The notes beneath the pieces are model-generated. The model had not been told where the DNA came from. It saw only the letters and a list, made by a program, of their open reading frames with translations, and made no database searches. DNA of 62,342 nt, filler included, from Babesia bigemina (lineage: Eukaryota), in NCBI RefSeq assembly GCF_000981445.1. It is 14 parts of 14 records of this genome, joined end to end, with 100 filler letters (N's around TTAATTAATTAA, not from the genome) between each part and the next. Parts side by side here need not be neighbours in the genome. Positions count along the whole stretch, not along the records: positions 30,242 to 41,750 come from NW_012236939.1; positions 41,851 to 53,943 come from NW_012236940.1; 12 more parts are not named here. One strand, 5' to 3'. This document shows positions 17,331 through 57,949 of the stretch, in pieces. Numbering within the stretch: position 1 is the first letter of the stretch; each line of letters opens with the position of its first letter. Both the position numbers and the translations under genes were made by a program.

Positions 17331-17339
17331 TATGTAAGT

Positions 17340-23316: not shown

Positions 23317-23339
23317 TAACTTGATCAGGTGCTTGGTTA

Positions 23340-37900: not shown

Positions 37901-40349
37901 TTATGGTCTCCGTTTTAATTGTGTCCAGGTTCCACTTCGCGTTGGAGGCTTCGTCTTTAAGGATCTTACATAGCTCACTGAGCGTGGACTTGACGCTTTC
38001 TATATCCTCATTAGCATATCTATTGTAATCGTCAATTGACGTTAGAGCGTTTTTTACATCATCTCGTATTTTTTTAATTGCCTCTGGCAGGGTGCCTGCT
38101 AACTTATTTGGATCTCGATCCGCGACTGCCAAACTTTCTGGCCTTTGGTCAACTTGCAACTTATATTTTCCAAAAATCGTTATATCCGTATCTTGAAGGT
38201 TAACTTTATCTGCACCAAGATATCCCGGAAACTGCTGCTCAAGCGTATTTGTTACTCCTCTGATTGCAGTGTCGACGTCAGCCGCAAGGTTATTCGTTTT
38301 TCCAGATGAACCAACAGGTTGCCCAAGCGCTGCTTTTAGCTTATCGAATAACAGATTCACTTTACTGTGAGCGTCATCGATTTTGGCTGCGATACTGTTC
38401 TTTGAGCCGTTTGGCCTTTGCTTGAGAGCAAAGGAGTGCAACTCTTTTGCGGCTTGCTTGGCTCTGGAAGACATCGCTGATAGCGTTATCAAAATGGCGA
38501 GGTGGAGATTCGTGTTGTCGTACGGCGGAAATGATTGCGGCTTGGATTTATTCACTAAGACAGCCTCAATGGATTGAACGGTATTGTTGAAAAGCGAATT
38601 AAGGTTTCTATCAAGTTCGCTGGCAAATTGCATTATACGTGAGTGTATATTTTGGAGATTCTCGTGAACGTTCTCCGCTGAAGGCAGGTTGACACTTGTA
38701 GCCGTGTTGATTGTATCATCTAGATGCGCAGTAAGTTTTTCTTTAACGGTTGTATTTATACCATCAATCCCATGTTTGTGGAGATTGGTGTCATTGAATT
38801 TATCTCTGTTTTCCCGCACATATTGCAATATATAGCTTTTGTATGTGTGATCCTCTTTCAATATATCGGATACCCACTCACCGACCGTATCCCTAAATCC
38901 ATTGCCGTACTGGTAAACATATCCGCTTACTCCTCTTTCAATACCATTCAGACCTGCGCCATCCCTTCCGCCTCCCTTGATTGCCCCAACTTTATTTCGA
39001 AGTTCTGTTATGATATCTTCAACACTTTTATGCTGTTCGCCTGCTACTCGGCCGGCACTAGAATCTTTAGGGAAATTATTCCCAAGCTCCTTAATATTTG
39101 TATCAACCTTATCGACTGCTTCCTTAATGGCCTTCTTCACCTTAAACAAATCCGCTTTCAGCTCACCGTCCATCGTTATGACAGCTCTAAGCGCTGCCGT
39201 GACTTCCGTTTGAACTTTTCGTTTAGCATCATCTCCTGCGCTGTGGAGCACTAATACTGCAGCTTTCAACTGCTCCACGACGCTATGCATTCTATACGTC
39301 TTCGTGCTGGAATCCTTCTCATTCGATTCCGCCAATACTTTATTCACCTTTTCCAGCGCCACATTCACATAGCTCTCCGCCTTCTTCATACACGCTTCTA
39401 GCTGCTTAACGTATTTTTCCAGATCTGTGCTTATCTCCCTCAGCTTCTTCAAAATTTTCTGCACCCTCAATTTCAAATCATTAACTAATTTATCTATATC
39501 GTCACCCACCTGCTTGTTTATGCAGCTCTTCAAATTGCGGAAACTTGTCTTAATCTTCTCCGTCGTCTCCTTCAACTCAGCGTCTTTCCGCTTGTGCACG
39601 CTGGCCAGCCGCTGGCTCTCGTACTCAACAAGCTTACGAACATGCAACACTTTGTCACGCAACTTATCATTAAGGTCATAAATGTTTTTTTTCATCTTAG
39701 TGTTGTTATTTGCCTTGGGGTCCAGGAATTCCGCGCACCTCTTGCTCCTATCTGTGGCCTCCTTCAGCCGGTCGCCGCAGGACCTTACGGCGTCGGCCAG
39801 CTGTGGATCCAGATCATGTTTGTCAACCTGAATCTTATTAATGCTAGTAATCAACTCACCTCCATTTTTCTTGGTGTAGTCGAGCAGTTTTTTAAGCGGC
39901 TCAATCACTGCTTCATTAGAAGACTTTACATTACCATTATACCCCCGCACCCCTGCGACCACCTTTTCAATCGCAACACTAAAACCTTTTTTGCCAAGGT
40001 GTTTATTGGCCTCAAGTGACTTAATAGCTTCTGTAATTTGCTCTTTATGCTGCCCTAAATGGCCATGGATGTTACTAAGCACACCACTCAAAAATCCCAT
40101 CACCCCGTCACACAGCCTGTCCAAGTCAGAGTACACAATCCCCTGGCCGTCGTAGCCTTTGGAGGCAGAGTCGAAGCCGAGGAAGGTTTCGAGGCCAGAG
40201 CAGAGGTTAGTAAGGATGTTAGTAGGGTTGTTATTTGAGGTGATTTTAAGGTTCAAAATTTCATCAAATTTCTTGTCAAGCTCCCTAGGCGGTACATGGT
40301 CAGGGCAGTGGCAGAGGTGGAAGGAGGGAAGTGAAGGGTGACCAGGCAC
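34980..40349 (-). CDS. ves1: Long VESA1-family gene (1789 codons, tail type B); first in-frame ATG at 40100
   Basis: Same domain order and conserved blocks as 24037-29562. Confidence 0.9.
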   Translation of the reverse strand: MPGHPSLPSFHLCHCPDHVPPRELDKKFDEILNLKITSNNNPTNILTNLCSGLETFLGFDSASKGYDGQGIVYSDLDRLCDGVMGFLSGVLSNIHGHLGQHKEQITEAIKSLEANKHLGKKGFSVAIEKVVAGVRGYNGNVKSSNEAVIEPLKKLLDYTKKNGGELITSINKIQVDKHDLDPQLADAVRSCGDRLKEATDRSKRCAEFLDPKANNNTKMKKNIYDLNDKLRDKVLHVRKLVEYESQRLASVHKRKDAELKETTEKIKTSFRNLKSCINKQVGDDIDKLVNDLKLRVQKILKKLREISTDLEKYVKQLEACMKKAESYVNVALEKVNKVLAESNEKDSSTKTYRMHSVVEQLKAAVLVLHSAGDDAKRKVQTEVTAALRAVITMDGELKADLFKVKKAIKEAVDKVDTNIKELGNNFPKDSSAGRVAGEQHKSVEDIITELRNKVGAIKGGGRDGAGLNGIERGVSGYVYQYGNGFRDTVGEWVSDILKEDHTYKSYILQYVRENRDKFNDTNLHKHGIDGINTTVKEKLTAHLDDTINTATSVNLPSAENVHENLQNIHSRIMQFASELDRNLNSLFNNTVQSIEAVLVNKSKPQSFPPYDNTNLHLAILITLSAMSSRAKQAAKELHSFALKQRPNGSKNSIAAKIDDAHSKVNLLFDKLKAALGQPVGSSGKTNNLAADVDTAIRGVTNTLEQQFPGYLGADKVNLQDTDITIFGKYKLQVDQRPESLAVADRDPNKLAGTLPEAIKKIRDDVKNALTSIDDYNRYANEDIESVKSTLSELCKILKDEASNAKWNLDTIKTETIKGQLEYVKNKLNDLRLIDLSAAIKEAENFLTSAGPTAQATIASIGKVVSSNVDEAQNTLITQVNKNYVTSVKAILLEFAEKAEKELEPLPKEITDDLDIGYKGFMNRLAGKFIARVEQIEDVNPNTFTAVTSPLREAASISHGAFKSFLLNLQNQTDVESDSSKIKPSYNAVTNLLTVLAQSLHFDHVFTKNLSNLNESVTAFKPSTYGAAKCPSLLNALKAGFTPLVEELKKAYVSTYSLRTIEWEKLTEAERRNYAKICWTITPILYDALTELKNRLEYSGWDGHKIYHPADGTSSLRALFFRDNGYDVHRPENAEHGELNHKTDFNGSSILEHLTNETHNLFSHLSSPVTGIPSSTSGSDELDVTIAEESGLIRKLYDFLQTYFAVCHLTRVDKPRAPCSVYEILVWCNGLQFNPVYGKLKKHIESEFMKEDKQRPGEKILQPFDTHPSDFEHTHIDEALYKVSANSHAVLTAILGHGHKDGIYACDFSDNSLKLDYPTNMIQLLCTLFDLLKRLYHQLYFLLQQCKYNAQLSGWRDCHYGRYIGGSGWQCNTKQCPKQDCDQRHDQSGNQTGEQYPSCGVKSPLQSFLEDGLKGHLPHSVTARGSSLSCGTCGNSPGMPCRTPMGFADISAIASHTMIGRDICDVLVYFCGRPNSPLTRLCSYLNCLLPSAPKTLADMFSFYYHLTDRWGMYGQAHKQRAFNEKVNAANFGRQYNDLNVYHLFSASHSAAWKGHAAGSLASLVCLSRDAVVCGPYLRPIGHAIYETFSAKHADKYLSWIVYLTASFYDLLKKLYDECNSKCGARGSNCHQKACVKECPTTSTTYQPPRYHDPKCKSIVKCNSTLPTLAKYGFVLGDPERLNRDGQSHTKRTCRDFCNVFKEAFEKDSHLVQFFKAIDNFMFTIRAPFLWMTLALWSLSLFYLICVMVGRLDVLHIKSHLRSPSSHRITAQSLLAAAQVGRLAKISYLQP

Positions 40350-40404
40350 AAGTTATTATAATGGTGTAAGAAGGTCATAGCGGTATTATGGCAAGGTAAT
40401 TCGA

Positions 40405-42286
40405 GGGATGTAGAGTGGGTTAAGGGGCGATGTAGAGTGGATAAAGGGGCGATGTAGAGTGGATAAAGGGGCGATGTGGAGTTGATAAAGGGGCGATGTA
40501 GAGTGGGTTAGGGAGCGATGTAGAGTGGGTTAAAAGGCGATGTGAAGTGGATAAAGGGGCGATGTAGAGTGGGTAAAGGGGCGATGTAGAGTGGATAAAG
40601 GGGCGATGTAGAGTGGATAAAGGAGCGATGTAGAGTGGGTAAAGGAGCGATGTAGAGTGGATAAAGGGGCGATGTAGAGTGGATAAAGGGGCGATGTAGA
40701 GTGGAGTAAGGGGCGATGTAGAGTGGGTTAAGGGGCGATGTAGAGTGGATAAAGGAGCGATGTAGAGTGGAGTAAGGGGCGATGTAGAGTGGATAAAGGG
40801 GCGATGTAGAGTGGGTAAAGAGGCGATGTGGAGTGGATTAGGAGCGATGTAGAGTGGGTTAAGGGGCGATGTAGAGTGGATTAAGGGGCGATGTAGAGTG
40901 GATAAGGGGCGATGTAGAGTGGGTTAAGGGGCGATGTAGAGTGGATTAAGGGGCGATGTAGAGTGGATAAGGGGCGATGTAGAGTGGGTTAGGGAGCGAT
41001 GTAGAGTGGGTTAAGGGGCGATGTAGAGTGGACTAAAAGGCGATGTAGAGTGGATTAGGGAGCGATGTAGACACGGTTAAGGAGCGATGTGGAGTGAGTT
41101 AGGGGGCGATGTGGAGTGGAAAAAGGAGCGATGTAGAGTGGGTAAAGGGGCGATGAAGGGAGGTTAAGGAGCGATGGAGAGTGGGTTAGGGAGCGATGTA
41201 GAGTGGGTTAAGGGGCGATGAAGGGTGGGTTAGGGAGCGATGTAGAGTGGGTAAAGGGGCGATGTAGAGTGGGTCAAGGGGCGATGTGGAGTGGGTTAAG
41301 GGGCGATGTAAAGTGGGTTAAGGGGCGATGTAGAGTATGTTAGGGGCGATGTAGAGTGGGTTAGGGAGCGATGTAGAGTGGGTAAGGAGCGATGTAGAGT
41401 GGATAAAGGAGCGATGTAGAGTGGATAAAGGAGCGATGTAGAGTGGGTAAAGGGGCGATGTAGAGTGAGTAAAGGAGCGATGTAGAGTGGGTTAGGGAGC
41501 GATGTAGAGTGGTCAAAGGGGCGATGTAGAGTGGATAAGGGAGCGATGTAGAGTGGGTTAGGGAGCGATGTGGAGTGGGTTAAGGAGCGATGTAGAGTGG
41601 ATTAGGGAGCGATGTAGAGTGGATTAGGGAGCGATGTAAGGTGGGTTAGGGAGCGATGTAGGGAGGGTAAAGGAGCGATGTAGGGAGGGTAAATAGGCGA
41701 TGTAGAGTGGGTTAGGGAGCGATGTGGAGTGGGTTAAGGGGCGATGTAGANNNNNNNNNNNNNNNNNNNNNNNNNNNNNNNNNNNNNNNNNNNNTTAATT
41801 AATTAANNNNNNNNNNNNNNNNNNNNNNNNNNNNNNNNNNNNNNNNNNNNGGGGCGATGTAGAGTGGGTTAAGGGAGCGATGTAGAGTGGATAAGGGGCG
41901 ATGTAGAGTGGGTTAAGGGGCGATGTAGAGTGGGTAAGGGAGCGATGTAGAGTGGATAAGGGGCGATGTAGAGTGGGTTAAGGGAGCGATGTAGAGTGGA
42001 TAAGGGGCGATGTAGAGTGGATTAGGGAGCGATGTAGAGTGGATAAAGGGGCGATGTAGAGTGGGTTAAGGGGCGATGTGGAGTGGATAAAGGGGCGATG
42101 TAGAGTGGGTTAGGGAGCGATGTAGGGTGGATAAAGGAGCGATGTAGAGTGGGTTAGGGAGCGATGTAGGGTGGTTAAAGGAGGGATGTAGAGTGGGTAA
42201 AGGGGCGATGTAGAGTGGACAAAGGGGCGATGTAGAGTGGGTTAAGGAACGATGTAGAGTGGATAAAGGGGCGATGTAGAGTGGAG
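40405..42286. repeat. 23-bp G-rich arrays (40405-41750 and 41851-42286, separated by a linker)
   Basis: Direct inspection. Confidence 0.98.
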
Positions 42287-42317
42287 AATAATTACCACTT
42301 AGGTCAGGTGCTTGGTC

Positions 42318-43108
42318 ACCATGTCATAGCTGCCGTAACCATGTCATCGCTGCCGTGCCCATGTCATCGCTGCCGTGACCATGTCATCGCTGCCGTGACC
42401 ATGTCATCGCTGCCGTAACCATGTCATCGCTGCCGTGACCATCTCACCGCTGCCGTGAGCATGTCATCACTACCGTCACCATGTCATCGCTGCCGTTACC
42501 ATGACATCGCTGCCGTGACCATCTCACCGCTGCCGTTACCATGTCATCGCTGCCGTAACCATGTCATCGCTGCCGTGACCATGTCATCGCTGCCGTGACC
42601 ATCTCATCGCTGCCGTGTCCATGTCATCGCTGCCGTAACCATGTCATCGCTGCCGTGACCATCTCATCGCTGCCGTGACCATATCATCGCTGCCGTGACC
42701 ATGTCATCGCTGCCGTGTCCATGTCATCGCTGCTGTGTCCATGTCATCGCTGCCGTAACCATGTCATCGCTGCTGTGTCCATGTCATCGCTGCCGTAACC
42801 ATGTCATCGCTGCCGTGACCATGTCATCGCTGCCGTAACCATGTCATCGCTGCCGTGTCCATGTCATCGCTGCCGTAACCATGTCATCGCTACCGTGACC
42901 ATGTCATCGCTACCGTGACCATGTCATCGCTGCCGTGACATCAACTTGGTCAGCACGTTTGTCAGCACTTTGGTCAGCACTTTGGTCAGCACCTTGGTCA
43001 GCACTTTGGTCAGGTGGTTGGTCAGCACATTGGTCAGCACTTTGGTCAGGTGGTTGGTCAGCACATTGGTCAGCACTTTGGTCAGCATCTTGATAAGCAC
43101 TTTAGTTA
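42318..43108. repeat. 20-bp repeat (42318-42940) followed by 12-bp repeat (42946-43108)
   Basis: Direct inspection. Confidence 0.95.
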
Positions 43109-43225
43109 ACTACTACACAATCACATACAACGATTAGTGAGTGATACAATAGATTAGACAACAATTCATAAGTTAGGTGAGTAGGTGATGCTAAGTGAGT
43201 GTAGAAGGTAAACACGTGAGTACGA

Positions 43226-46200
43226 TTATGGTTGCAGATAAAACACTCTGTTAAGCTTGTTAACACGCGCAGCCGCAAGTAGCGATTGAGCAGCGATGCG
43301 ATGACTCGAGGGACTATGTAGATGCGATTTGATGTGTAGCAGGTCGAGGCGGATGACCATGATGTGGATGAGGTAGAGGACAGAGAGGAGCCAGAGGGCG
43401 ACGTTGAGCCAGATGAAGGGGGCGCGGATTTTGAACAGCAGTTCGTCACACTGCTTGAACAACGCGACGAAGTATTTGGAGTCCATAACTCTCTTCAACA
43501 GTACGCCAAATTTCGTACATGTTCTTGCGTTAGTTTTTTCATTTAACGCAGCCGCATCACCGAATGCGAATCCACATTTGTAAAGCGTGGCTGAAACACC
43601 TTTGCATGATACCAGAGAGTTACACTGACAAGGGTTGTCAAAACTGCCATGGTGGCCCGGCCTGCATCCATCTCCACGCTGGCATCTACGGCATCCCCAG
43701 TCCCTGCAGAAAATCTGTTGATATTCTGTAAACAGCGATTTAAGGTAATCGTGAAACGTCCACGGGAGGTATGTCGCCCATGACAGGTAGAGACCAGCGT
43801 GTTTGGGAGCAAGCAATGAATATGAGTCACCGCTCAAGGATTGAAGGTACGGGCCACATGGATGACTTGTACATGACTGCGTCATCGAGAGACTGCGCAA
43901 GTCGGCCGATATAGGATTATGATTACGATCTTCATGCGCGTCCCGGGTGCTGCCGTACGCATCACGCAGGGCATCGGTGAAGTCACTGCGTTGGTCATGT
44001 AGGTTTATCGTGGCCTTAGCGATGGATGCTGAAAATGCATCTTGTATTACATGTGTCTTTGAATTCGACACACCACTATGCCAGCCATTAGTAAGAGATA
44101 GCGCGAAGCTGAGATGCTCCGGTAGATTGGACGGCGGCTTGGGAAACAAGCAGGACAACGATGAAGTCAGCTTGTTACCTAGCAATTTGGTCAGCACTTC
44201 ACATAGCTCTTTGCCCATCCGTGTACTTCCGGAGTAGCCTCTAAATCCGAGAGGGGTGATACAGGGCATTCCGGGCAGGCCCTTGGGACAGTTGCTGCAT
44301 ACCGATTTGCAGCCGATTGATGTAACGTGGTGAGGTAGGTGGCCGGGTAACGTATCACTAAGGTACGACATAAGTGGCGATGTGGGCCTGCAAATCGATC
44401 CCTCGTTGGCGTGCTCCTTGCAGGGTTGCCTAGATGACATGATATCCCTGCCGTACTGACATTCGCGCCAACCGGAACATTGCGAATCTAGGCTGCACTG
44501 CTGCAACAAATACTTAAGCGGAGGGATAACTCTACGGGTGACCTCGAGCAACATCTGTAGGCAATCGTCTCCCGCGCTAGGGTAATACAAATTTGCGGTG
44601 TTGGTGCAGAAGTCAATGCCGTACGTCGCAAACGCGTCTCCGTGACCGACAACTTTGCAGAGGATATCGTACGATGCGGAACACGTGTCAACCACCGCTT
44701 GTCGTAAAGCGTCATAAGTTATGTTCGCTGGGTAAGCTTCTATGGATGCGACGCTGATATCCGTTGCGGAGGGGCCGTCGCCGGCATTCGCTTTTTTAGG
44801 GTCAACGAATAAGTCAGTGAGAGTCACATCAAGCATAGTTGGGTACACGGCATTATACGTGAGTCCGGAGCACCATACAAGCATTTCGTATACATTACAG
44901 GGTTGTCGTGGTTTGCGGCGAATTGGGATGTGGCACACTTCACTGTACTTCTCGACATGATGCAGAAGGCAACTAAGGAGGTCAAATAGATTGAAGTGAT
45001 CGGGCTTCTTGCTCTCATTCGATTCACACTTACTGAGATGTTTGATTAACGCTGGCTCCGCAACCCCCTGGTCTAGAAGCCTCTCGTAGACGGATTTACC
45101 GGTGAAGTGGTACGACGGGTATTTCAGCTCGCCAGTCTTTGAATCTTCATTTTTGGCCACCTGGAATCCGCAGCGCTTGAAGAATTTACCAAGCGGATTT
45201 TCTTCGCGTTTCTCATTTTCGTACAGCCTCTGGTCACTCCAGCGACCACCGGTGATACACTCTTTACGCAGTCGATCAATGTCCTCTTGCAGCGTGAAGA
45301 TGATGGTGAACAGCAGTTTGGCGCAGTTTCGTTGCTCAGTGGCATCGGTCCAATCCAAGACTCTGCCGGAGTACCGATTAATGTACGCCTTGTCGAGCTC
45401 GGTGAGCAGCGCACGGATGCCCTCTTTGAGACACTGTGACAGCGCAGTCGTGGGTTCGCCGAATGTCGATGGGTTGAAAGTTTTGAATGTATTCTTCAGT
45501 TCATGCAGGTTTTCTTCGAACTTATAGTTGAAGTGCTTCGATGCGTTGAGGCCGTCCAGTAATTTGGTAAGAGCGTCATGTGACGGTTTGATCTTCCTAA
45601 AGTCGGATGTGAAATCTGTCTGCGTTTTAACTTCGCGGACAAATGTTCTGTATGCATCAATGAACATATTTGCAGCTCGGCTGACAGGCGATAGTGTGCC
45701 TGGAGAGGATGTTTTGGGAATGTTCGCAATGTCCTCGAGCCGATTGTTATACTTGACGAAATGCGATTCCATCTTTGTCATAAAACCTTTCATACCAATA
45801 ATCAAATCCTTATCAATGGGTTCAAGTAGAGATTGGAATTCCTTCTTCACCCTTTCGGCAAACGATGTGAACAACTCTTTGATAGCGCAAACATACTGCT
45901 TGCGGGCAAATGTGGTGAGTGTAGTTTCGGCGTTTTTGATGTCCCCGTGTACCTCTTCTTTGAGCGCTTTGGCGACGTCTGTTTCGGCTTTTGTGAGGAA
46001 TGCAACTAAATCTTTAGTTTTCGCAATAGGGCCAGTATGCAGTTCATTTTGCAGGTCGCTGAGGTCCTGCTTGATTTTGTTGATGCTGTTTTTCGCGGCG
46101 TGAGGTCCTTCACTCAACTCCGCAAAATACACTTTTTTCAATTCATTAAGTTTGCTCTGTAGACCATCCCGATAGCTTCCGGGCCCCGCTAATTTAATAA

Positions 46201-48871
46201 TCTCATTGCACAGTTGGTTGAGTTTGGTGGTAACTTCAGTGACTTTTTCCGTAGCTTTAGTATTGAAGTCGTCGATGGATGACAAGTTGGCTGTCGTTTG
46301 CGTTTTCATATCTTCTATCGCGTCGTCTAAATGATCCTTTCTGCACTTTCCTCGGCTGCCTCTGCTGAAAGAATTCGTAAAGTGCGCAAGGGACACACTA
46401 CCGCGGTTATCCAAAGGCAACTGTTCTTCTAAAATTCCCGTCATGGCTTCGACCGCTTCGTCGACTTCTTCGGCATAGTTGGGTCCGTTATTGGGTAGGC
46501 CGCTATTATTTCTCCCAATCGCCATATTGATATTTCTATGTAGGTCACTTGCCGCAGCGAACTCACTGCCCACGTTAGCGAAATGGCATTCGTCAATAAG
46601 CTTACCAATTTTTTGAGCAGCGCCTTGTGCACGGCCGATGAGCTGGTGGAGGATGCTGTTAACAGCGTTCTGAAGATCTTCTTGTTCATGGCTTACTCCG
46701 ACAGATGAGTGCTGAAGTTCGTCATCATTTCCATACTCTTTTTCTATATCACGTATTATTGATGTTACTTCAATAGTTTTGAATCTTATAGCGTTTGTCA
46801 GCTGTGTTGCTAAAGAAGAAAGAAAGTTCTTAATGCTATTTAAATTAACACTGACCTCACGGGAATTGGAATGGTTGAGCGTATCAATTCCGGCAATAAC
46901 AGATTTGAGCCTCACGTCAAGAACTTTTCTAACATGCCTTTTGACATTTACTTTTACGGTAGTTTGTCCATGAGCGCGAAAATAAGAACCAATGTTAGTT
47001 TGAGCATACTGTGTTAGAGCCGCATCTACAATTCCCTGGGATTCCAAAATGTCATTCATCCATTCCTTCAAAACCAATTCTTCGAACGTCTTATTTGTAA
47101 ATTTCGTTGCATACTCCTGCAATGCAGTGACGATCCATTGCAGTCCATTACCAGCGCCTTCTTCTCCTTTGATATCTTTAATTTGTGCTTCAATTGCTTC
47201 GATAACCTTTGCGATTTTCTTATCTCCTGCTTGTATTTCGCTGTCTAATCTCCCTTCTTTAACAATATTGCACAGCTTTCCTATCTCATTCTTGACTGCA
47301 GTGACTTTAGCCTTAATCGCTTCCCTCACCGTAACCAAATCATCCTTTAGCCCAGTCTCCAACTTAGTAATTTTGTCCTTTGCAATATCCACCCAACCGG
47401 AGATATGTTCTGTAACCGCCTTTCCAGCATTGTAAAGCCCTCCAGCATATATGTTAATAAAATTTGTTACTTCTTCAATTTTCTTAGGGAATTTATTTGG
47501 GTCATCCCACTTAACCTCCTTCAATACCTCATCAACTTTCTTCAACGATTCCTTGATAACATTATCGGCCTTGGCAATCCAATTCTGCAACGTGTCAATG
47601 TGCTGTAGCAGCTCACTGTTTATTTTGGTAAGTTCATTCAATATGACGTTAACCATCTCCTTGACCCGTCTAACAAACGCCTGAATCTGCGCATCAATTT
47701 TGCAATCTACGTCCGACGTCAACGTACTAAGTGTAGCGCTTATTTTCTTTTTTGTCTCCTCAAGCGCCTTACTCTCCTTATCCGCCACCTGCTCTAGCCG
47801 CTTAATCTCATGGGCCACGTTACTGACGCCGTGTTTCACTCTAAGCTGCAACGAGGAATTTAAGTAGTGAATTGCAATTTTCATGTCTGTTTTTTCAATT
47901 TTAGTAGTGAAATTATATGCGTTATTAAACGTGTTATTGAATGTTTTTATCTCGTCTCGAAACATGTTCTTAATCTGCTTCTCCGCCGCCTTGACTTGTT
48001 CGACATTCTCATAATCTGTTTCCTGCGACAGTATATTTTGTACCTTGTCTTTAAATGCATCACCCACCTGATTTAACAAGTCTTCAATGGGCTTCTTAAC
48101 TTTCTCATTGGACTCTCTCACTTCTATGTTGTACCTCTCGATCCCCTGAGTCAGAATGGGAAGAAGCTTAGTGAAACCATCGTGACCTGAGCAAAGATGT
48201 TTCTTTATTTCATTACTTACCGAATTTAATGTGTTTTTACCGGCATTGTATGTCTGAGTGTTTTTCACCGCACCAAGCACACCACTCAAAAATCCCATCA
48301 CCCCGTCACCAAGCCTATCAAGGTCAGAGTACACAATGCCCTGGCCAGTGTAGCCTTTGGAAGTCTTATCGTAACCAAGAAAGGTCTCAAGACCGTCACA
48401 TAAATTAACAAGGATATTTTCATTATTAGTTTTAGCAAGTGATTCAGTGAATTTCTTAAGCTTATTAGTAAGATCTTCAAGTTGTTTCTCACGCTCAGTA
48501 ATTTCATCATACGCTTTTTTCTGGGAATCGGAACGCTTAGATTCATGTGATTCAACACATTTTTGTTTAGCATCTTTAAAATGTTTAGAAGAAAAACCAT
48601 TTGAATTTTCTCCAGATTTTCCAGGTTTTTCAAGTTCATCAATTTTCCTCTGGTAGTACTGGCAAGTGGACTCATTTCCCTTGTATTTAACAGGGCATTC
48701 AAGTTTATTTTTTTCGGCTTGGAGGGACTTAGTAGCCTTCTCAATAGCCTCCTCAATCAACTTTTTCAAAGCTTGAGACAACTTGGTAAGACCATCACTG
48801 CCACCATTCCCATGCCTAACCTGGATCAACCAGTCTATGGACTCAGTCAGAAGGTAAGGGAAGGGTGACAA
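43226..48871 (-). CDS. ves1: Long VESA1-family gene (1881 codons, tail type A); first in-frame ATG at 48298
   Basis: Begins at the VESA1 N-terminal motif ESIDWLIQV, contains the conserved blocks and TM, and ends NRVFYLQP. Confidence 0.9.
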   Translation of the reverse strand: MSPFPYLLTESIDWLIQVRHGNGGSDGLTKLSQALKKLIEEAIEKATKSLQAEKNKLECPVKYKGNESTCQYYQRKIDELEKPGKSGENSNGFSSKHFKDAKQKCVESHESKRSDSQKKAYDEITEREKQLEDLTNKLKKFTESLAKTNNENILVNLCDGLETFLGYDKTSKGYTGQGIVYSDLDRLGDGVMGFLSGVLGAVKNTQTYNAGKNTLNSVSNEIKKHLCSGHDGFTKLLPILTQGIERYNIEVRESNEKVKKPIEDLLNQVGDAFKDKVQNILSQETDYENVEQVKAAEKQIKNMFRDEIKTFNNTFNNAYNFTTKIEKTDMKIAIHYLNSSLQLRVKHGVSNVAHEIKRLEQVADKESKALEETKKKISATLSTLTSDVDCKIDAQIQAFVRRVKEMVNVILNELTKINSELLQHIDTLQNWIAKADNVIKESLKKVDEVLKEVKWDDPNKFPKKIEEVTNFINIYAGGLYNAGKAVTEHISGWVDIAKDKITKLETGLKDDLVTVREAIKAKVTAVKNEIGKLCNIVKEGRLDSEIQAGDKKIAKVIEAIEAQIKDIKGEEGAGNGLQWIVTALQEYATKFTNKTFEELVLKEWMNDILESQGIVDAALTQYAQTNIGSYFRAHGQTTVKVNVKRHVRKVLDVRLKSVIAGIDTLNHSNSREVSVNLNSIKNFLSSLATQLTNAIRFKTIEVTSIIRDIEKEYGNDDELQHSSVGVSHEQEDLQNAVNSILHQLIGRAQGAAQKIGKLIDECHFANVGSEFAAASDLHRNINMAIGRNNSGLPNNGPNYAEEVDEAVEAMTGILEEQLPLDNRGSVSLAHFTNSFSRGSRGKCRKDHLDDAIEDMKTQTTANLSSIDDFNTKATEKVTEVTTKLNQLCNEIIKLAGPGSYRDGLQSKLNELKKVYFAELSEGPHAAKNSINKIKQDLSDLQNELHTGPIAKTKDLVAFLTKAETDVAKALKEEVHGDIKNAETTLTTFARKQYVCAIKELFTSFAERVKKEFQSLLEPIDKDLIIGMKGFMTKMESHFVKYNNRLEDIANIPKTSSPGTLSPVSRAANMFIDAYRTFVREVKTQTDFTSDFRKIKPSHDALTKLLDGLNASKHFNYKFEENLHELKNTFKTFNPSTFGEPTTALSQCLKEGIRALLTELDKAYINRYSGRVLDWTDATEQRNCAKLLFTIIFTLQEDIDRLRKECITGGRWSDQRLYENEKREENPLGKFFKRCGFQVAKNEDSKTGELKYPSYHFTGKSVYERLLDQGVAEPALIKHLSKCESNESKKPDHFNLFDLLSCLLHHVEKYSEVCHIPIRRKPRQPCNVYEMLVWCSGLTYNAVYPTMLDVTLTDLFVDPKKANAGDGPSATDISVASIEAYPANITYDALRQAVVDTCSASYDILCKVVGHGDAFATYGIDFCTNTANLYYPSAGDDCLQMLLEVTRRVIPPLKYLLQQCSLDSQCSGWRECQYGRDIMSSRQPCKEHANEGSICRPTSPLMSYLSDTLPGHLPHHVTSIGCKSVCSNCPKGLPGMPCITPLGFRGYSGSTRMGKELCEVLTKLLGNKLTSSLSCLFPKPPSNLPEHLSFALSLTNGWHSGVSNSKTHVIQDAFSASIAKATINLHDQRSDFTDALRDAYGSTRDAHEDRNHNPISADLRSLSMTQSCTSHPCGPYLQSLSGDSYSLLAPKHAGLYLSWATYLPWTFHDYLKSLFTEYQQIFCRDWGCRRCQRGDGCRPGHHGSFDNPCQCNSLVSCKGVSATLYKCGFAFGDAAALNEKTNARTCTKFGVLLKRVMDSKYFVALFKQCDELLFKIRAPFIWLNVALWLLSVLYLIHIMVIRLDLLHIKSHLHSPSSHRIAAQSLLAAARVNKLNRVFYLQP

Positions 48872-48931
48872 GGCACAAGTTATTATTGTGGTTTAAAGAG
48901 GTCATAGCGGTAATATGGCGAGGTAATTGGA

Positions 48932-50155
48932 GGGATGTAGAGTGGGTAAAGGGGCGATGTAGAGTAAGTTAGGGAGCGATGTAGAGTGGGTAAAGGAGCG
49001 ATGTAGAGTGGGTTAAGGGGCGATGTGGAGTGGATAAAGGGGCGATGTGGAGTGGGTTAGGGAGCGATGTAGAGTGGGTTAGAGAGCGATGTAGAGTGGA
49101 TAAAGGGGCGATGTAGAGTGGATAAGCGGCGATGTAGAGTGGATAAAGGGGCGATGTAGAGTGCGTTAAGGGGCGATGTGGAGTGGGTAAAGGAGCGATG
49201 TAGAGTGGGTAAAGGGGCGATGTAGAGTGGATAAAGGGGCGATGTAGAGTGGGTAGAGGAGCGATGTAGAGTGGGTTAAGGAGCGATGTGGAGTGGGTAA
49301 GGGGCGATGTAGAGTGGGTAAAGGAGCGATGTAGAGTGGGTTAAGGAGCGATGTGGAGTGGGTAAGGGGCGATGTAGAGTGGGTTAGGGAGCGATGTGGA
49401 GTGGATTAAGGGGCGATGTAGAGTGGATTAGGGAGCGATGTAGAGTGGGTTAAGGGGCGATGTGGAGCGGGTTAAGGAGCGATGCAGAGTGGGTTAAGGG
49501 GCGATGTAGAGTGGATAAAGGGGCGATGTGGAGTGGGTTAAGGGGCGATGTAGAGTGTATAAGGAGCGATGTAGAGTGGATAATAATCACCACTTAGGTC
49601 ATGTCATCGCTGCCGTGACCATGTCGTCGCTGCCGTGACCATGTCGTCGCTGCCGTGACCATGTCATCGCTGCCGTGACCGTGTCATCGCTGCCGTGTCC
49701 ATGTCATCGCTGCCGTGACCATGTCATCGCTGCCGTGACCATGTCATCGCTGCCGTAACCATGTCATCGCTGCCGTGTCCATGACATCACTGCCGTGTCC
49801 ATGTCATCGCTGCCGTGACCATGTCATCGCTGCCGTGACCATCAACTTGTTTAGCACTTTGGTCATGTCATTGGTCAGCACTTTGGTCATGGCATTGGTC
49901 AGCACATTGGTCGTGGCTTTGGTCATCACTTTGGTCAACACGTTGGTCAGCACCTTGGTCAGCACCTTGGTCGTGGCATTGGTCAGCACCTTGGTCAGGT
50001 GCTTGGTCACCACTTTGATCATGGCATTGGTCAACACTTTGGTCATGGCATTGGTCATGGCATTGGTCACCACCTTGGTCAACACATTGATCAGCACTTT
50101 GGTCATGGCATTGGTCAGCACCTTGGTCAGCACATTGGTCATGACATTGGTCAGG
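48932..50155. repeat. Composite array: 23-bp (48932-49582), 20-bp (49600-49842), 12-bp (49848-50155)
   Basis: Direct inspection. Confidence 0.95.
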
Positions 50156-50249
50156 TGGTAGGTCACCTCACTGCTGATGTGATTAGTCATAAACGCACGC
50201 ATTATATTGTCTAGACATTAGATGTCAGTTGGCAGTTAAGTTATTCTGC

Positions 50250-50375
50250 TTAGCTGCGCAGTAGATACCGCACCCTGTGGAACGGCCGGATGCGGAAGTA
50301 GATCATGGCGCAGATGACGAGGATGATGACGGCGACGGCGGCGATGATGTAAGGGAAGGACGTTGGGGGAAGATG
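50250..50375 (-). pseudogene. Orphan TM-tail cassette (PYIIAAVAVIILVICAMIYFRIRPFHRVRYLLRS*)
   Basis: Matches the tail of copies 1, 2 and 4, lies downstream of copy 3, and starts after the TGA in GAGGTGAC. Confidence 0.85.
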
Positions 50376-50501
50376 TCACCTCACTGCTCATGTGCTTGAT
50401 CATAAACGCGCTCATTACTGTCTATAACATTAGATGTTAGTTGGCAGTTAGGAGATCAGTGGGATTTGGATTACGATGTTTGCGCTAACAAATTGCTGCG
50501 A

Positions 50502-51074
50502 TCAGCTGTAAAACGCGATGCAGAAGGGTATCTTGCGTACGAGGAAATCGCGGATGTTGCGGCCCACCGGGAAGCGGAAGATGCACAGGTCGAGCAGGAT
50601 GATGGCGACAATGATGGCAACGATGACGGCGGCGATGGCTTGGGGGTCAGGGGAAAAAGGTGTGGAGTCTTCTTCAGTAGGGTCTTCGATGGAATCTTCA
50701 TTACCGCTGGTACGACGTAGTGCACTGTTCTCGGACAGATCACCGGAGGAATCAGGGGGAGGCGGTGGAGGTGGAGGCTGTGGAACGGGGGCACTGCACT
50801 CGTCAGGCCGCTCTCTACATTTCCGTTGACAACAGTCACATTTACATTGTAACTCGTTGCCTGCACATTTGGTTATACAATCGAAGGTTTTGCAATTGTA
50901 ACTTGGATCCTTGTTATTTTGCCGCTTCCAGGTATATGCAAAACACTCATAACAACGGGATAAACTATCCGTATTACATTCTTTGCAACACCAGGGACAG
51001 CAGTTACAAACCTGCATATATTTACACTTTTTGTTACACCTAGTGCATGGTTTCCCTGGCCAATAATGAGTCAT
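50502..51074 (-). CDS. Small Cys-rich single-TM protein, copy 3 (190 aa, 18+2 Cys, alternative tail FRFPVGRNIRDFLVRKIPFCIAFYS)
   Basis: Same scaffold and GGGAAG-ATG context; Pro-rich linker. Confidence 0.85.
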   Translation of the reverse strand: MTHYWPGKPCTRCNKKCKYMQVCNCCPWCCKECNTDSLSRCYECFAYTWKRQNNKDPSYNCKTFDCITKCAGNELQCKCDCCQRKCRERPDECSAPVPQPPPPPPPPDSSGDLSENSALRRTSGNEDSIEDPTEEDSTPFSPDPQAIAAVIVAIIVAIILLDLCIFRFPVGRNIRDFLVRKIPFCIAFYS

Positions 51075-51079
51075 CTTCC

Positions 51080-51750
51080 CGCTCTGCTCCCAGTCCCCTC
51101 AACCTGCAAACATATCAGTCACCTAAGCACAACTCACCTACAAAAACACGTACCACTGCCGCTCCCAGTCCCCTCACCCTGCGAACATATCAATCACCTA
51201 GCAACGCACTCACCGACTGCAACACGTACCACTGCCGCTCCCAGTCCCCTCAACCTGCAAACATATCAGTCACCTATGCAAGCACTCACAAACTGCAACA
51301 CGTACACTGCCGCTCCCAGTCCCCTCAGCCTGCAGACATATCAATCACTCAAGCAACGCACTCACCAACTGCAACACGTACCACTGCCGCGCCCAGTCCC
51401 CTCAACCTGCGAACATGTCAATCACTCAAGCAGCACTCACCAACTGCAACACTACCACTGCCGCTCCCAGTCCCCTCAGCCTGCAAACATATCAATCACT
51501 CAAGCTGCACTCACCAACTGCAACACTACCACTGCCGCTCCCAGTCCCCTCAACCTGCAAACATATCAATCACCTAGCAACGCACTCACCAACTGCAACA
51601 CGTACCACTGCCACTCCCAGTCCCCTCAACCTGCGAACATATCAATCACTCATGCAACGCACTCACCAACTGCAACACGTACCACTGCCGCTACCAGTCC
51701 CCTCAGCCTGCAAACATATCAATAACCTAAGCAGCACTCACCAACTGCAA
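51080..51750 (-). repeat. 75/76-bp intron/micro-exon-like repeat (~9 units)
   Basis: Reverse complement of the 17340 unit. Confidence 0.9.
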
Positions 51751-51764
51751 CATGACTTACTTAA

Positions 51765-52240
51765 CCCTCACCCCTGTGTCCCCCCAGCCCAGGCCACCGA
51801 CACCCACGCTGCCCGGGATACCACAGCTGCCCTGACGCGACGCATGTGATCAGCACCAACTGTCACTCTAAATTATTAAATATTCGCAAAGCCATTAAAA
51901 TTGCAGCGACCCGTGCGCTCAACTCCCACAGTGCAGCAGCACCGTGCTACGAGCTGCGGTATCGGCGCTATGCTGGCTGAGTGTGTCGGCTACGTGCCTA
52001 AATGTGATATTAACGATCGCTACATCGCTGCCTATAAATGCTACTTAACCAGGCCAACGCGGATTACGCCACCCTGCCAGTGACTCGCAACACACGACTT
52101 AGGACACCCGCCGCGGCCCTCACGACCGCCTACGTTAGCGACCAATCACCCAGCCTCACGTGACACTGACTCAATGGGCAACGCGGACACCTCTCACAGT
52201 CAACGCACAGCTCAACGCAACAACCAAATAACGGTTCATT
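51765..52240 (-). promoter_or_regulatory. Conserved ~500-bp element, copy 3
   Basis: High similarity to the other copies. Confidence 0.6.
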
Positions 52241-52242
52241 TG

Positions 52243-52408
52243 CCAGCTTACCACTTTGCCTGGTTGCCAGCTTACCACCTTGCCTGGTTGCCAGCTTAGC
52301 ACTTTGCCTGGTTGCTAGCTTAGCACTTAGCCTGGTTGCTAGGTTAGCACTTTACCTGGGTGCCAGCTTAGCACTTAGCCTGGTTGCTAGGTTAGCACGT
52401 TGCTTGGT
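52243..52408 (-). repeat. 24-bp tandem repeat
   Basis: Direct inspection. Confidence 0.93.
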
Positions 52409-52549
52409 CGTTCAGTCATAACCTACGTTAGGTGTGATTTAGTTCACAGGTTGCCGCTAGAGTAATTCGAGACATTAAACTACGTTTGTTATTTAGGCGA
52501 GTAGGTGAGATATTACGTGAGTTGATGTGAATTACAAACGTGAATACAA

Positions 52550-53943
52550 TTACGGTTGTAGATACGATATCTTGGCAAGCCTTCCGACTTGCGCTGCCGC
52601 CAACAATGATTGAGCAGTTATCCTGTGCGATGACGGTATCCTCAGGTGTGACCTGATGTGGAGCACATCCAGCCTGCCAACCATTACGCAGATGAGGTAG
52701 AAGAGGGATAGTGACCAGAGCGCCACGGTCATCCACAGGAACGGTGAGCGGATGGTGAACATGAAATTATCAATGGCTTTGAATAACTGCACAAGATGTG
52801 AGTCCTTCTCAAATGACTCCGCGAATACTGTACAGAAATCTCTGCACGTGCGTTTTTTCTCAATGCCTGCACTTCCGTTCAGCCTCTCTGGATCGCCGAG
52901 AACGAAGCCGTACTTCGCCAATGTCGGCAGCGTGGAATTGCACTTTACAATGGATTTGCATTTGGGATCGTGATATCGTGGTGGATCATGTTTGGATGTA
53001 GTTCTACAATCTTTGATGCACGCCTTTTCATGGCAATTCGATCCCCTGGAACCGCATTTGGAATTGCACTCATCATACAGTTTCTTCAGCAGATCGTAGA
53101 ACGATGCCGTCAGATAGACAATCCAGGACAGATACTTATCGGCGTGTTCTGACGAGAACGTCTCGTAGATGGTGTGACTGATGGGACGCAGATAAGGACC
53201 GCATACGATGGCTTCCCTTGATAAGCATACGAGACTGCCCAGGCTACCATCGGAGTGGCCCTTCTTCAATGCCGAGTGACTAGGGGTAAATAAGTGGTAG
53301 ACGTTCAGCTCATTATACTGACGTCCGAAATTAGCTGCTTTAACTTTCTCCTCAAATGCCTCTTTCTTGTGTTTGTTACCGTGCATACCCCAGCGATCGG
53401 TGAGGTGATGGTAGAAGCTGAACATGTCCGCCAGCGTTTTCGGCGCACTAGGCAAAAGGCAGTTGAGGTAACTGCACAGCCTTGTGAGAGGGGAGTTAGG
53501 ACGGCCACAGAAATCGTAAAGCACCTCGCATATATTCCGGCCTATCATCGTATGCGACGCGATGGCACTGATGTCAGCGAAGCCCATCGGAGTTCTGCAC
53601 GGCATACCAGGTGAATTACCACACGTGCTACATGACAGACTCGATCCCCTAGCTATCACCGAATGCGGCAGGTGGCCCTTCAAACCGTCCTCCAAGAACG
53701 ATTGCAGTGGCGACGTGACGCCGCAGTTGGGATATTGCCCACCCGTTTGGTTGCCACTTTGGTCGTGCCTTTGGTCGCAGTCTTGCTTAGGGCATTGCTT
53801 CGTGTTGCACTGCCAGCCGGACCCACCGATGTACCTGCCGTAGTGGCACTCCCTCCAGCCGCTGAGCTGAGTTGTAAGTTGACACTGCTGCATCAGGAAG
53901 TACAGCTGGTGGTAGAGGCGCTTGAGCAGGTCGAACAACGTCA
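52550..53943 (-). CDS. ves1: VESA1-family gene, C-terminal part (tail type B), cut by contig end
   Basis: Closely similar to the C-terminal ~460 aa of 34980-40349. Confidence 0.88.
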
Positions 53944-56160: not shown

Positions 56161-56261
56161 NNNNNNNNNNNNNNNNNNNNNNNNNNNNNNNNNNNNNNNN
56201 NNNNTTAATTAATTAANNNNNNNNNNNNNNNNNNNNNNNNNNNNNNNNNNNNNNNNNNNNC

Positions 56262-56438
56262 GTCGCGCTCTGGCTCCTCTCTCTCCTCTACCTCACCCAC
56301 ATCATGGTCATCCGCCTCGACCTCCTCCACATCAAGTCACACTTACACTCACCCTCATCACATCGCATAGCTGCTCAATCACTACTCGCCGCTGCACGTG
56401 TTAACAAGCTTAACAGAGTGTTTTACCTGCAACCATAA
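56262..56438 (+). CDS. ves1: VESA1-family gene, last 58 codons (tail type A)
   Basis: VALWLLSLLYLTHIMVIRLDLLHIKSHLHSPSSHRIAAQSLLAAARVNKLNRVFYLQP*. Confidence 0.9.
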   Translation, partial: VALWLLSLLYLTHIMVIRLDLLHIKSHLHSPSSHRIAAQSLLAAARVNKLNRVFYLQP

Positions 56439-56556
56439 TCGTACTCACGTGTTCAATATCTACACTCACCTAGCATCACCTACTCACCTAACTTATGAAT
56501 TGTGCTTTAATCTGTTGCATCACTCATTAATCGTTGTATGTGGTTGTGTAATAGTT

Positions 56557-57437: not shown

Positions 57438-57940
57438 GCGGATGAACCATAATTTGGTGGGTGTTGTAGCACGTTGATTGCCTGGTGTGTTGAGTTGTGC
57501 GTTGACTGTGAGTGGTGTCCGCGTTGCCCTTTGAGTCAGTGTCACGTGAGGCTGGGTGATTGGTCGCTAACGTAGGCGGCCGTGAGGGCCGCGGCGGGTG
57601 ACCTAAGTCGTGTGTTGCGAGTCACTGGCAGGGTGGCGTAATCGGCGTTGGCCCGGTTAAGTAGTTTTATAGGCGGCGATGTAGCGATAGTTAATATCAC
57701 ATTTAGGCACGTAGCCGACACGCTCCGCCAGCATGGCGCCGATACCGCGGCTCGTAGCACGGTGCTGCTGCACTGTGGGAGTTGAGAGCACGGGACTCGC
57801 TGCAATTTTAATGGCGTTGCGAAAAATGAATAATTTAGGGTGACAGTTGGTGCTGATCACATGCGTCGCGTCAGGGCAGCTGTGGTATCCTGGGCAGCGG
57901 GGGTGTCGGTGGCCTGGGCTGGGGGATACAGCGGTGAGGG
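57436..57940 (+). promoter_or_regulatory. Conserved ~500-bp element, copy 4
   Basis: High similarity to the other copies. Confidence 0.6.
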
Positions 57941-57949
57941 TGAGTGTTG

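Follow-up and report, generated by a model that had tools for sequence, protein, structure and literature searches.

The stretch of DNA analysed here, referred to below as the window, comprises 62,342 bases of the Babesia bigemina assembly GCF_000981445.1 and consists of 14 unplaced contigs joined with N44-TTAATTAATTAA-N44 spacers. Our subject is the region from position 41851 to position 53943, which is exactly one contig of 12,093 bases and carries genes of the ves1 (VESA1) family, the tandem repeat arrays that lie between them and a small cysteine-rich gene. The arrays were located with Tandem Repeats Finder and with a blastn map of five repeat units, and all statements on order are made in the transcription direction of the neighbouring ves and small genes, which we call the gene direction. 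Ten arrays of a 22-bp unit (R22), seven of a 20-bp unit (R20), six of a 12-bp unit (R12), five of a 24-bp unit (R24) and four of a 75/76-bp unit (R75) were found in the window. The modules are present in 7 of the 14 contigs, which are named here by their start positions: 16351, 18982, 30242, 41851, 54044, 56261 and 60109.

In the focal contig (41851) all genes and modules are on the minus strand. Read in the gene direction, the contig opens with the 3' part of a ves1 gene cut by the contig end (C1, 52550-53943), which is 87-88% identical to the gene B1 of contig 30242 and ends in a tail of class I (..AQVGRLAKISYLQP). It is followed by a 3' untranslated region (UTR) of class I leading into R24 (52404-52549, 83-89% identical within the class) and by the R24 array itself (52245-52403), the units of which hold the near-palindrome GTGCTAAGCTAGCAC. 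The next feature is E500 (51753-52244), a non-repetitive, GC-rich element that is predicted to contain the promoter and the first non-coding exon of the small gene. The R75 array (51086-51752) has about 9 units, each composed of an intron-like segment of 33-36 nucleotides (nt) with the pattern GTGAGTGC..TTGAT..GCAG and a further 40-41 nt, and the ATG of the small gene stands 29 nt past the last CAG. The small cysteine-rich gene (50502-51074) is of type A and encodes 190 amino acids (aa), with 22 cysteines, a transmembrane (TM) helix 24 aa from the C-terminus and no N-terminal hydrophobic segment. Its 3' UTR and an extra tail cassette, made of a type B TM helix, a tail, a stop and a second UTR copy ending in AGCAGTGAGGTGAC, occupy 50155-50501. 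Further on are an R12 array (49869-50154), an R20 array (49600-49842), an R22 array (48934-49579) and, directly after R22, the conserved start of a leader (CCTCCAATTACCTCGCCATATTACCGCTATGACC.., 48893-48933). The ves1 gene C2 (43226-48892), which is ves1b-like and has a tail of class II (..ARVNKLNRVFYLQP), shows an open frame from 48892 with the first in-frame ATG at 48298 (MGFLSGVL). Behind it lie a class II 3' UTR leading into R12 (43088-43225, 87-90% identical to two other class II copies and 67-77% to class I), an R12 array (42946-43087), an R20 array of 31 units (42318-42939) and an R20/R22 junction of R12-like units (..GACCTAAGTGGTAATTATTCT, 42285-42317), one of six such junctions that are 82-100% alike. 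The last feature is an R22 array of 22-bp units (41851-42284), G-rich on the plus strand, that is, antisense to ves, which runs into the contig start.

The full order in gene direction is ves, 3' UTR, (R12), R24, E500, R75, small cysteine-rich gene, tail cassettes, (R12), R20, R22, leader, ves; besides this long form there are short forms, which are spacers without the small-gene unit. To 47 elements an orientation could be assigned, namely 32 arrays, 7 ves genes or 3' ends, 4 small genes and 4 copies of E500, and over the seven contigs all 47 have the same polarity relative to the genes, with none discordant. If the elements were independent, the formal chance of this result would be 2^-40, but the loci are paralogous, so the figure says only that the pattern is not noise. 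As for succession, the next block after R20 is R22 in 6 of 7 cases and R12 in the seventh; after R12 it is R20 in 5 of 6 and R24 in the sixth; after R24 it is E500 in 4 of 5 and R20 in the fifth; and E500, R75 and the small gene follow one another in 4 of 4. For six R22 arrays the contig includes the downstream side, and all six stand directly upstream of a leader or a ves gene; the next feature is the canonical leader in five of them and a 156-bp x1.9 repeat with a partial ves gene in one. Genes are head-to-tail in 5 of the 5 contigs that have at least two oriented genes, and the small-gene unit is present in four spacers and absent from three otherwise similar ones. These results confirmed that the layout is real, with a fixed order, one polarity, an optional small-gene unit and head-to-tail genes.

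A sequence-only reading of the window had proposed this layout, and its claims of a fixed order and polarity, of head-to-tail genes within each contig, of an optional small-gene unit and of three short forms without the small gene are all borne out. Some details had to be corrected. The series of modules stands, but the repeat that had been given a period of 23 bp has a unit of 22 bp; a short form does exist at 22553-23863, but its blocks read R24>R20>R12>R20>R22 and not as had been listed; and contig 30242 does have the long form, but with no 12-bp block after the small gene and with only about 1.2 units of R75.

The other copies of the layout are as follows. Contig 16351 (16351-18881, plus strand) contains a second long-form copy, composed of a class I UTR (16351-16487), R24 (16488-16825), E500 (16826-17341), R75 (17342-17781) and a small gene of type B (17794-18255), behind which two type A tail cassettes (18256-18881) extend to the contig end. 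On the minus strand of contig 18982, R22 at the contig end (29796-30141) is followed by a leader, the ves gene A1 (24037-29568, tail class I) and a short form (22553-24036) that has a class I UTR, R24 (23353-23863), R20 (23110-23315), R12 (22883-23101), R20 (22799-22865) and R22 (22553-22782). The ves gene A2 (19721-22303, 860 aa), which matches only residues 922-1690 of C2 and is preceded by the 156-bp x1.9 repeat (22226-22522), is followed in turn by another short form (18982-19720) with a class II UTR, R12 (19500-19587), R20 (19317-19495) and R22 (18988-19290, contig end). The third long-form copy is in contig 30242 (30242-41750, minus strand), where R22 (40407-41750), a leader, ves B1 (34980-40352), a class I UTR, R24 (34412-34821), E500 (33918-34411), R75 (33827-33917, the 1.2 units noted above), a type B small gene (33371-33814), R20 (33100-33273) and 2.8 kb of R22 (30242-33069, to the contig end) succeed one another. 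Contig 54044 (54044-56160) is made of R22 units only, about 96 by Tandem Repeats Finder, with the C-rich strand on plus. The fourth long-form copy is in contig 56261 (56261-60008, plus strand), where a ves 3' end with a class II UTR (56261-56567) is followed by R12 (56568-56955), R24 (56955-57436), E500 (57437-57950), R75 (57951-58568), a type B small gene (58575-59030), R12 (59125-59238), R20 (59257-59561), R22 (59600-59945) and 63 nt of leader. Contig 60109 (60109-62342, plus strand) has R22 (60109-60297), a leader and the 5' part of a ves gene from 60488.

In the R22 unit a core that looks invariant, GCGATGTAGAGTGG, is joined to a telomere-like linker that varies (GGGTTAGGG, GGGTTAAGGGG, GGATAAAGGGG), and identical unit variants recur in different arrays. 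Its G-rich strand is always antisense to ves, and R22 holds 33 of the 45 G-quadruplex motifs of the window (loops of at most 12) yet only 8,778 of its 61,198 bases. The seven module-bearing contigs have 14 ends, and eight of these are inside R22 arrays, which shows that the assembly broke there, so that array lengths are minimal or unreliable and order is mapped over about 12 kb at most. No true telomere repeats were found in the window; the telomere unit of B. bovis is CCCTA3-4 (Brayton et al. 2007, PMC2034396). In Table S1 of Jackson et al. 2014 (PMC4066756), three ves-family genes, BBBOND_0111390, BBBOND_0313930 and BBBOND_0314010, lie near the right ends of chromosomes 1 and 3 on the reverse strand. 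Transcription of these three genes runs away from the telomere, so that R22 would there have its G-rich strand pointing to the chromosome end, as in telomeres, with three genes only as the basis. We also observed that E500 contains the R22 core GCGATGTAG at 52020-52040 and at the same place in the three other copies, on the strand opposite to that of the R22 arrays; it is exact in two of the four copies and has one or two base differences in the other two, and it may be due to chance.

The junctions UTR>R24, R12>R24, R12>R20 and R20>R22 all consist of 12-bp-like units, and R12, R20 and R24 have the core GTG(C/G)T(G/C)AC in common. The spacer is thus shown to be a ground of 12-bp-like units, within which the 24-, 20- and 22-bp arrays stand in a fixed series. 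The arrays seem to have grown by local expansion inside one ancestral 12-bp-like spacer, an origin that would by itself explain the fixed order and polarity. A kinship of R20 with the N-terminal coding sequence of ves (..WLIQVRHGNG..) was considered and rejected, the tblastn E-values of 0.19-0.21 being at chance level. In six intergenic intervals the share of tandem arrays is 84, 73, 87, 77, 56 and 43%, and the two with the lowest shares also contain E500. The three full intervals from one open reading frame (ORF) to the next measure 1475-1733 bp, and a fourth, from the stop of B1 to the ATG of its small gene, 1165 bp. Because the arrays occupy 43-87% of the intervals, the terminator and promoter signals of ves would be expected in the arrays or right beside them.

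To identify the ves genes, a protein search was made with the C-terminal 541 residues of the 1690-aa ORF at 43226-48298 (minus strand), which yielded 305 relatives with E-values of 1e-5 or better; statements on species and tails rest on the best 120 of these. Those 120 have E-values of 1e-148 to 1e-221 and all come from B. bigemina or B. ovata. Table S1 of Jackson et al. 2014 gives two of the relatives, BBBOND_0305380 and BBBOND_0303890, the label BbigVes1b. The genes show the features of the ves1 family, namely the conserved C-terminal domain, one TM helix and a ..SHRI(A/T)AQSLLAA..YLQP tail, and the tails of the window are the two commonest among the best 120 relatives. The closest database match among these has about 66% identity, and as none is nearer, the ves genes of the window are themselves not in the protein collection.

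The ves proteins are 22-45% identical over the N-terminal 600 aa and 38-57% over the C-terminal 440 aa, with B1 and C1 (87%) as the exception. At the DNA level, blastn between the three full ves loci found similarity in only three regions, with minor matches in one pair (a stretch of 64% and a 72-nt match). The first region is the initial 100 nt or so of the leader after R22 (86-91% identical); the second is a 5' block of 120-150 nt that encodes ..NLCxGLETFLGF..GIVYSDLDRLCDGVMGFLSGVL (81-89%); and the third comprises the last 270-380 nt of the gene including the 3' UTR, which are 84% identical within a tail class and 66-68% across classes. The remaining body of about 4.5 kb can not be aligned between the three loci. 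The flanks, on the other hand, are 81-94% identical between loci whose bodies fail to align as DNA, which shows that bodies and flanks of the same ves loci differ strongly in divergence.

By their tails the ves genes fall into two classes. Class I comprises A1, B1 and C1, and a class I UTR is also found at the start of contig 16351; class II comprises A2, C2, the 3' end at the start of contig 56261 and a gene in contig 5450. The 3' UTRs split as the tails do, with 83-90% identity within a class and 67-77% between classes. The class predicts the next repeat in 7 of 7 cases, R24 coming after class I (4 of 4) and R12 after class II (3 of 3); an eighth ves gene is cut 112 nt past its stop, and no next block is present. 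R24 or R12 begins 133-173 nt past the stop in all five ves genes that have both a stop and downstream DNA, and two further UTR ends enter the same arrays. A1 has a class I tail, but its C-terminal domain is nearer to the class II genes (50-55%) than to those of class I (46-49%), a pattern that is mosaic as judged from these identities. A2 corresponds to the C-terminal half of a ves gene and aligns with C2 over residues 922-1690 at 41% identity. It may have lost its 5' part as a truncated copy, or it may belong to one of the shorter ves classes, ves1a for example.

The leader begins about 30 nt past R22 with CCTCGAATTACCTCGCCATAATACCGCT-ATGACCTCTAT and spans 29569-29795, 40353-40406, 48299-48933 and 60298-60487 in the four loci. 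It contains a short conserved ORF, MT(S/F)INH.NNLCLVTL.FPSSTSCHC, which serves as the N-terminus of ves in some reference gene models and is duplicated in A1 and in contig 60109. Other reference ves models start with MAPQFKKLTD.. or with MGFLSGVL. Other relatives have a start of the MAPQFKKLTDCPENLRESIDW type; its counterpart in C2 is degenerate and lacks an ATG. On these grounds the ves start codons look poorly defined in this family. We did not accept the annotated MTSINH starts as proof of translation from 30 nt past R22, given the frameshift of this ORF in A1 and B1 and the fact that at least one reference model is in the wrong frame further on.

The optional unit between R24 and R12 or R20 consists of E500, R75, a small cysteine-rich gene with a C-terminal TM helix, and one or two extra tail cassettes. 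The four copies of E500 are 92-94% identical, with 434 of 549 alignment columns invariant. The possibility that E500 is a structured RNA was rejected, compensatory change being seen in 0 of 161 predicted pairs among the four copies. Each R75 unit has GTGAGTGC at its head, TTGAT about 12 nt before GCAG, and then the segment of 40-41 nt. GCAG is invariant in 20 of 20 units; since the units were cut at GT[GT]AGT, the first six bases of GTGAGTGC, only this count is free of the choice of cut. The first 33-36 nt of the unit look like a complete short intron, and in 4 of 4 arrays the ATG of the small gene lies 23-29 nt past the last CAG. A tandem mini-intron array within a 5' UTR would be unusual.

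The small proteins have 147-190 aa and 19-22 cysteines, and the distance from their TM helix to the C-terminus is 14 aa in type B and 24 aa in type A. The four ORFs start with MTHYWPGKPC, MGKGERCY, MSKCKC and MGYTPLC; judged from these starts, with no signal-peptide predictor run and an upstream exon possible, the proteins have no N-terminal hydrophobic stretch, and their layout would be tail-anchor-like. The three type B proteins are 24-32% identical to the type A copy, and the cysteines align. In two word-indexed searches, 36 relatives were obtained with the type A query and 5 with the type B query, and all 41 are B. bigemina entries named "hypothetical protein". The small protein matched no Pfam family, had no usable match in the ESM Atlas and gave 0 matches in the PDB when a 20-sequence profile was searched at E-values up to 1. 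Its AlphaFold2 model has a mean predicted local distance difference test score (pLDDT) of 59.7 and a predicted template modelling score (pTM) of 0.27, and the TM helix alone is confident.

All four small genes of the window lie inside ves spacers. In the database, at least 6 of 32 locus tags of the small family are no more than 5 tag steps away from any one of the 15 tagged ves matches among the best 120 of 305 (for example, BBBOND_0305030 beside BBBOND_0305020), a count that presumes positional locus tags. A tail cassette consists of a TM helix, a cytoplasmic tail, a stop and a UTR of about 100 nt ending in AGCAGTGAGGTGAC, and one or two extra copies stand past the stop of the small gene. These are of the same tail type as the gene or of the other, in an order that varies by locus: contig 41851 has an A gene with a B tail, and contig 16351 a B gene with two A tails. 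The idea that the cassettes are canonical alternative 3' exons was rejected, there being no AG acceptor in front of them in the sequences examined. The small cysteine-rich family is a candidate second variant family, and it is unnamed in the literature examined.

The copies of the modules are independent paralogues and not collapsed duplicates, since they differ by 6-8% in E500 and by 10-17% within a UTR class and accompany different ves and small-gene bodies. The sequence-only reading had named collapsed copies of one or two loci as a finding that would speak against it; this is not what we found, E500 being 92-94% identical and the ves bodies far more diverged. To learn whether the layout recurs in other isolates, we used the contigs of six public runs (labelled below with X and a number) from six studies, contig depth not being taken as copy number. 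The best run shares at most 12% of the sampled words of the focal contig. The run contigs cover the repeat blocks, E500, the leader and 5' block and the ves 3' ends, with E500 pieces as close as 84 nt with 0 differences (X7) and 136 nt with 4-5 differences (X2). There is no or next to no cover of the ves body (43467-47910), of most of the small-gene body (50739-51142) and of 58636-58885. Several junctions are bridged with at least 31 nt on each side, namely E500/R24 (X3, 51985-52309; X6, 57395-57528), E500/R75 (X4, 57679-57994) and the end of the type A gene with the type B tail cassette (X3, 50365-50618), and short-form joints, in which R24 or R12 passes directly to R12 or R20, are present in X1, X2 and X4. 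These pieces indicate that the long and the short form both exist elsewhere.

In the window itself, contigs 12096-13949 and 14050-16250 are cloning-vector contamination. They carry beta-lactamase ORFs, with Pfam E-values of 1e-17 to 1e-33, and at 15809-15912 a complete RNAI of ColE1 (Rfam RF00106, 75 bits), and with two vector contigs nearby this contig bin is low in quality. The RNAI match is the single Rfam match in the window, and no module matches any Rfam family. Two short contigs, 5450-7618 and 7719-9835, hold ves fragments without repeat modules, and both contigs end too early. The fragment in contig 5450 is the one with the class II tail that is cut 112 nt past the stop; that in contig 7719 is an internal piece on the plus strand.

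The closest known relatives of this locus are the B. bovis locus of active ves transcription (LAT) and the ves1/smorf clusters of that species. The family is the same, as the ves genes of the window have the conserved VESA C-terminal domain, and in both species a small unrelated gene family is interspersed with ves1. Repeat blocks downstream of ves1, mentioned for B. bovis (Brayton et al. 2007), correspond to the R24 or R12 blocks after 5 of 5 ves stops in the window. The LAT, however, is a divergent pair of ves1alpha and ves1beta with a promoter region of less than 500 bp, whereas in the window the genes are on one strand in 5 of 5 contigs and the intergenic intervals are 1.2-1.7 kb or more and mostly arrays. 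The contrast with divergent B. bovis pairs that the sequence-only reading had drawn is fair but not absolute, because 35% of the B. bigemina ves1 genes are in divergent LAT-like pairs (Jackson et al. 2014). The same source reports tandem ves1 loci at B. bigemina chromosome ends and ves1b genes with ves1a-type 3' ends, the latter resembling the two tail classes and the mosaic A1 of the window. SmORF and ves2 are like the small genes of the window in being physically tied to ves1 loci. SmORF has a signal peptide (Brayton et al. 2007), whereas the small protein of the window has no N-terminal hydrophobic segment and has its TM helix near the C-terminus. Among the 41 database matches of the small family there is no B. 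bovis protein and neither SmORF nor ves1 or ves2, as found by database search with no direct alignment to SmORF or ves2. Jackson et al. 2014 name ves2 as the smORF analogue, and not a small cysteine-rich family. We found no description of the spacer order, of E500 or of the small cysteine-rich family in the open literature, subscription journals and preprint supplements aside, including the accessible parts of PMC4066756, PMC10463595 (B. caballi, 2023), PMC5660447 (B. ovata, 2017) and PMC2034396.

In its working, the layout may be compared most closely with the silent VSG (variant surface glycoprotein) arrays of Trypanosoma brucei, and its blocks resemble the subtelomeric repeat series of Plasmodium falciparum. 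Silent VSG arrays have 70-bp repeats before each gene and a conserved 3' block, and these flanks delimit the copied cassette. Like them, the window has variant genes in head-to-tail order, with a repeat array upstream (R22, 6 of 6) and a conserved 3' block (270-380 nt). The two have no sequence relation and belong to different phyla, and the spacer of the window strings together four to five distinct repeat types and also houses a second gene. The likeness would be one of working only, not of homology. In P. falciparum, the series of telomere-associated repetitive elements (TARE1-6, with rep20) and of subtelomeric var promoter elements (SPE2) has one occurrence at each chromosome end, where it separates the telomere from the first var gene (upsB). 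Both systems place distinct repeat blocks in fixed order and polarity beside variant antigen genes, with one block directly upstream of the gene. The difference is that the series in the window recurs between successive genes, on contigs that are unplaced.

How such a layout arose and what it does may be explained as follows. We propose, with a probability of roughly 0.6, that the conserved head-to-tail ves1b spacer derives from a duplicated ves-plus-spacer unit and that the conserved ends of the genes likely provide homology for the exchange of bodies. Order and polarity would most likely have been inherited from duplication of the whole unit, and the conserved gene ends and spacers would likely be the homology within which the variable ves bodies swap between loci, so that the differing histories of bodies and flanks would stem from recombination with breakpoints in the conserved ends. 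Breakpoints in these ends are suggested by the discordance of flanks and bodies, by the coupling of the tail class to the next block and by the mosaic A1. Signals that end and start ves transcription would sit in the arrays or beside them, the small gene would have E500 as its promoter and first exon, and R75 would represent tandem short introns and mini-exons in the 5' UTR of that gene. A role of the arrays as homology or regulatory blocks is putative, and the mechanism is inferred. The exchange of bodies agrees with the report that ves1 genes are routinely transposed between loci (Jackson et al. 2014).

Several results weigh against the proposal. A single duplicated ves-plus-spacer unit yields fixed order and polarity trivially, so that neither is in itself evidence of function, and common descent alone would suffice for both. 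The contigs seen are all of 12 kb or less, and many are broken within R22. The recent duplicates B1 and C1, taken as a control pair, are 88% identical in the gene and 89% in the UTR, and such equal divergence is what simple co-duplication predicts. In A1 and B1 the leader ORF has a frameshift when compared with annotated relatives that begin with MTSINH, which leaves the ves start codons uncertain. In the body of E500 there are 51 singleton sites and 5 two-by-two informative ones (1, 3 and 1 among the three pairings), a star-like pattern with too few informative sites to give a clear sign of recent exchange between copies or to show ongoing homogenisation of E500; purifying selection or a single burst of duplication would fit the pattern as well. 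The cassette system that the sequence-only reading had suggested thus finds in the window the anatomy that it needs, conserved flanks around hypervariable bodies, but no clear recent exchange among the E500 copies. Finally, none of the 30 small-family tags checked (of 32) is in the blood-stage proteome of Jackson et al. 2014 (Table S1, 459 rows), a kind of survey that easily misses small cysteine-rich membrane proteins.

The star-like E500 and the equal divergence of the B1 and C1 genes and UTRs would be at home in another explanation, in which the arrays are functionless minisatellites copied along with the genes, the likeness of the flanks stems from recent duplication only and the ves bodies diverge fast under diversifying selection. 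Array lengths that vary freely, single blocks that are missing or doubled, and arrays that seem derived from each other, with their common GTG(C/G)T(G/C)AC core, are in line with it too. Selection on the protein alone, however, can not erase synonymous similarity so fast that bodies of about 4.5 kb become unalignable beside flanks of 81-94% identity, and neither the mosaic C-terminus of A1 nor the recurrence of modules and several junctions in runs from six studies is what neutral spacers would lead one to expect. We consider this explanation doubtful, though serious. A regulatory role of the arrays seems to us somewhat more doubtful still: R22, and perhaps R12, R20 and R24, would be tandem protein-binding sites or nucleation sites of silent chromatin that control the choice of ves, as the SPE2 arrays upstream of subtelomeric var genes in P. 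falciparum are bound by PfSIP2. It draws on the position of R22, which in 6 of 6 cases immediately precedes the leader or ves and stands about 30 nt before a conserved ATG-containing motif, on the combination of an invariant-looking core with a variable linker and with the same unit variants across arrays, and on the fact that between the genes almost no non-repetitive DNA remains for a promoter. An array length of 189 bp to more than 2.8 kb and a contig of pure R22 are satellite-like rather than what a tuned control element would show, and shared unit variants fit recent common descent equally.

The small-gene unit could also have been added to ves spacers by mobile or duplicative insertion instead of being an original part of them. 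It is present in four spacers and absent from three similar ones, has R24 as its left neighbour in all four copies, brings its own conserved upstream element and ends in a variable stack of tail cassettes. Within the unit, though, no transposase, integrase or reverse transcriptase ORF was seen, and at its borders no terminal repeats (target-site duplications got no dedicated search), and the right border varies between R12 and R20, as deletion or unequal exchange would give; we regard such an insertion as improbable. Not quite so improbable, but well short of our proposal, is a true cassette system in which the G-rich, telomere-like R22 arrays and the conserved 3' blocks would start and resolve the wholesale replacement of ves bodies between head-to-tail loci, as an apicomplexan counterpart to the VSG cassette with 70-bp repeats of trypanosomes. 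The spacers would then also house a second variant family of small cysteine-rich, tail-anchored proteins, with working mini-introns in tandem in the 5' UTR and with membrane tails swapped in from the tail cassettes downstream. That the layout is an assembly artefact, produced from collapsed or redundant copies of one or two loci, is largely refuted. Unplaced contigs of at most 12 kb with 8 of 14 ends in R22, and two neighbouring contigs of cloning vector, might have raised the suspicion; the copies, however, differ by the amounts given above in E500 and UTRs and have different ves and small-gene bodies, and the junctions recur in contigs of independent runs.

The architecture described here is moderately novel. 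Newly noted are the prediction of the next repeat by the tail and UTR class, the intron-like unit of R75 and an unnamed small gene family of B. bigemina. In practice, the R22 arrays explain why assemblies break at ves loci, and the blocks offer anchor points for amplifying or assembling the ves repertoire. The small cysteine-rich family changes the picture of ves2 as the sole counterpart to the smORF of B. bovis. B. bigemina is a major parasite of cattle that persists by varying its VESA1 surface antigen, and the conserved flanks around very variable bodies are likely to be sequences of recombination and control. A polar, conserved spacer with defined blocks at both ends of the gene is a concrete, testable substrate for the movement of ves1 genes and for ves control, and the breakpoints of exchange can be sought in named blocks.

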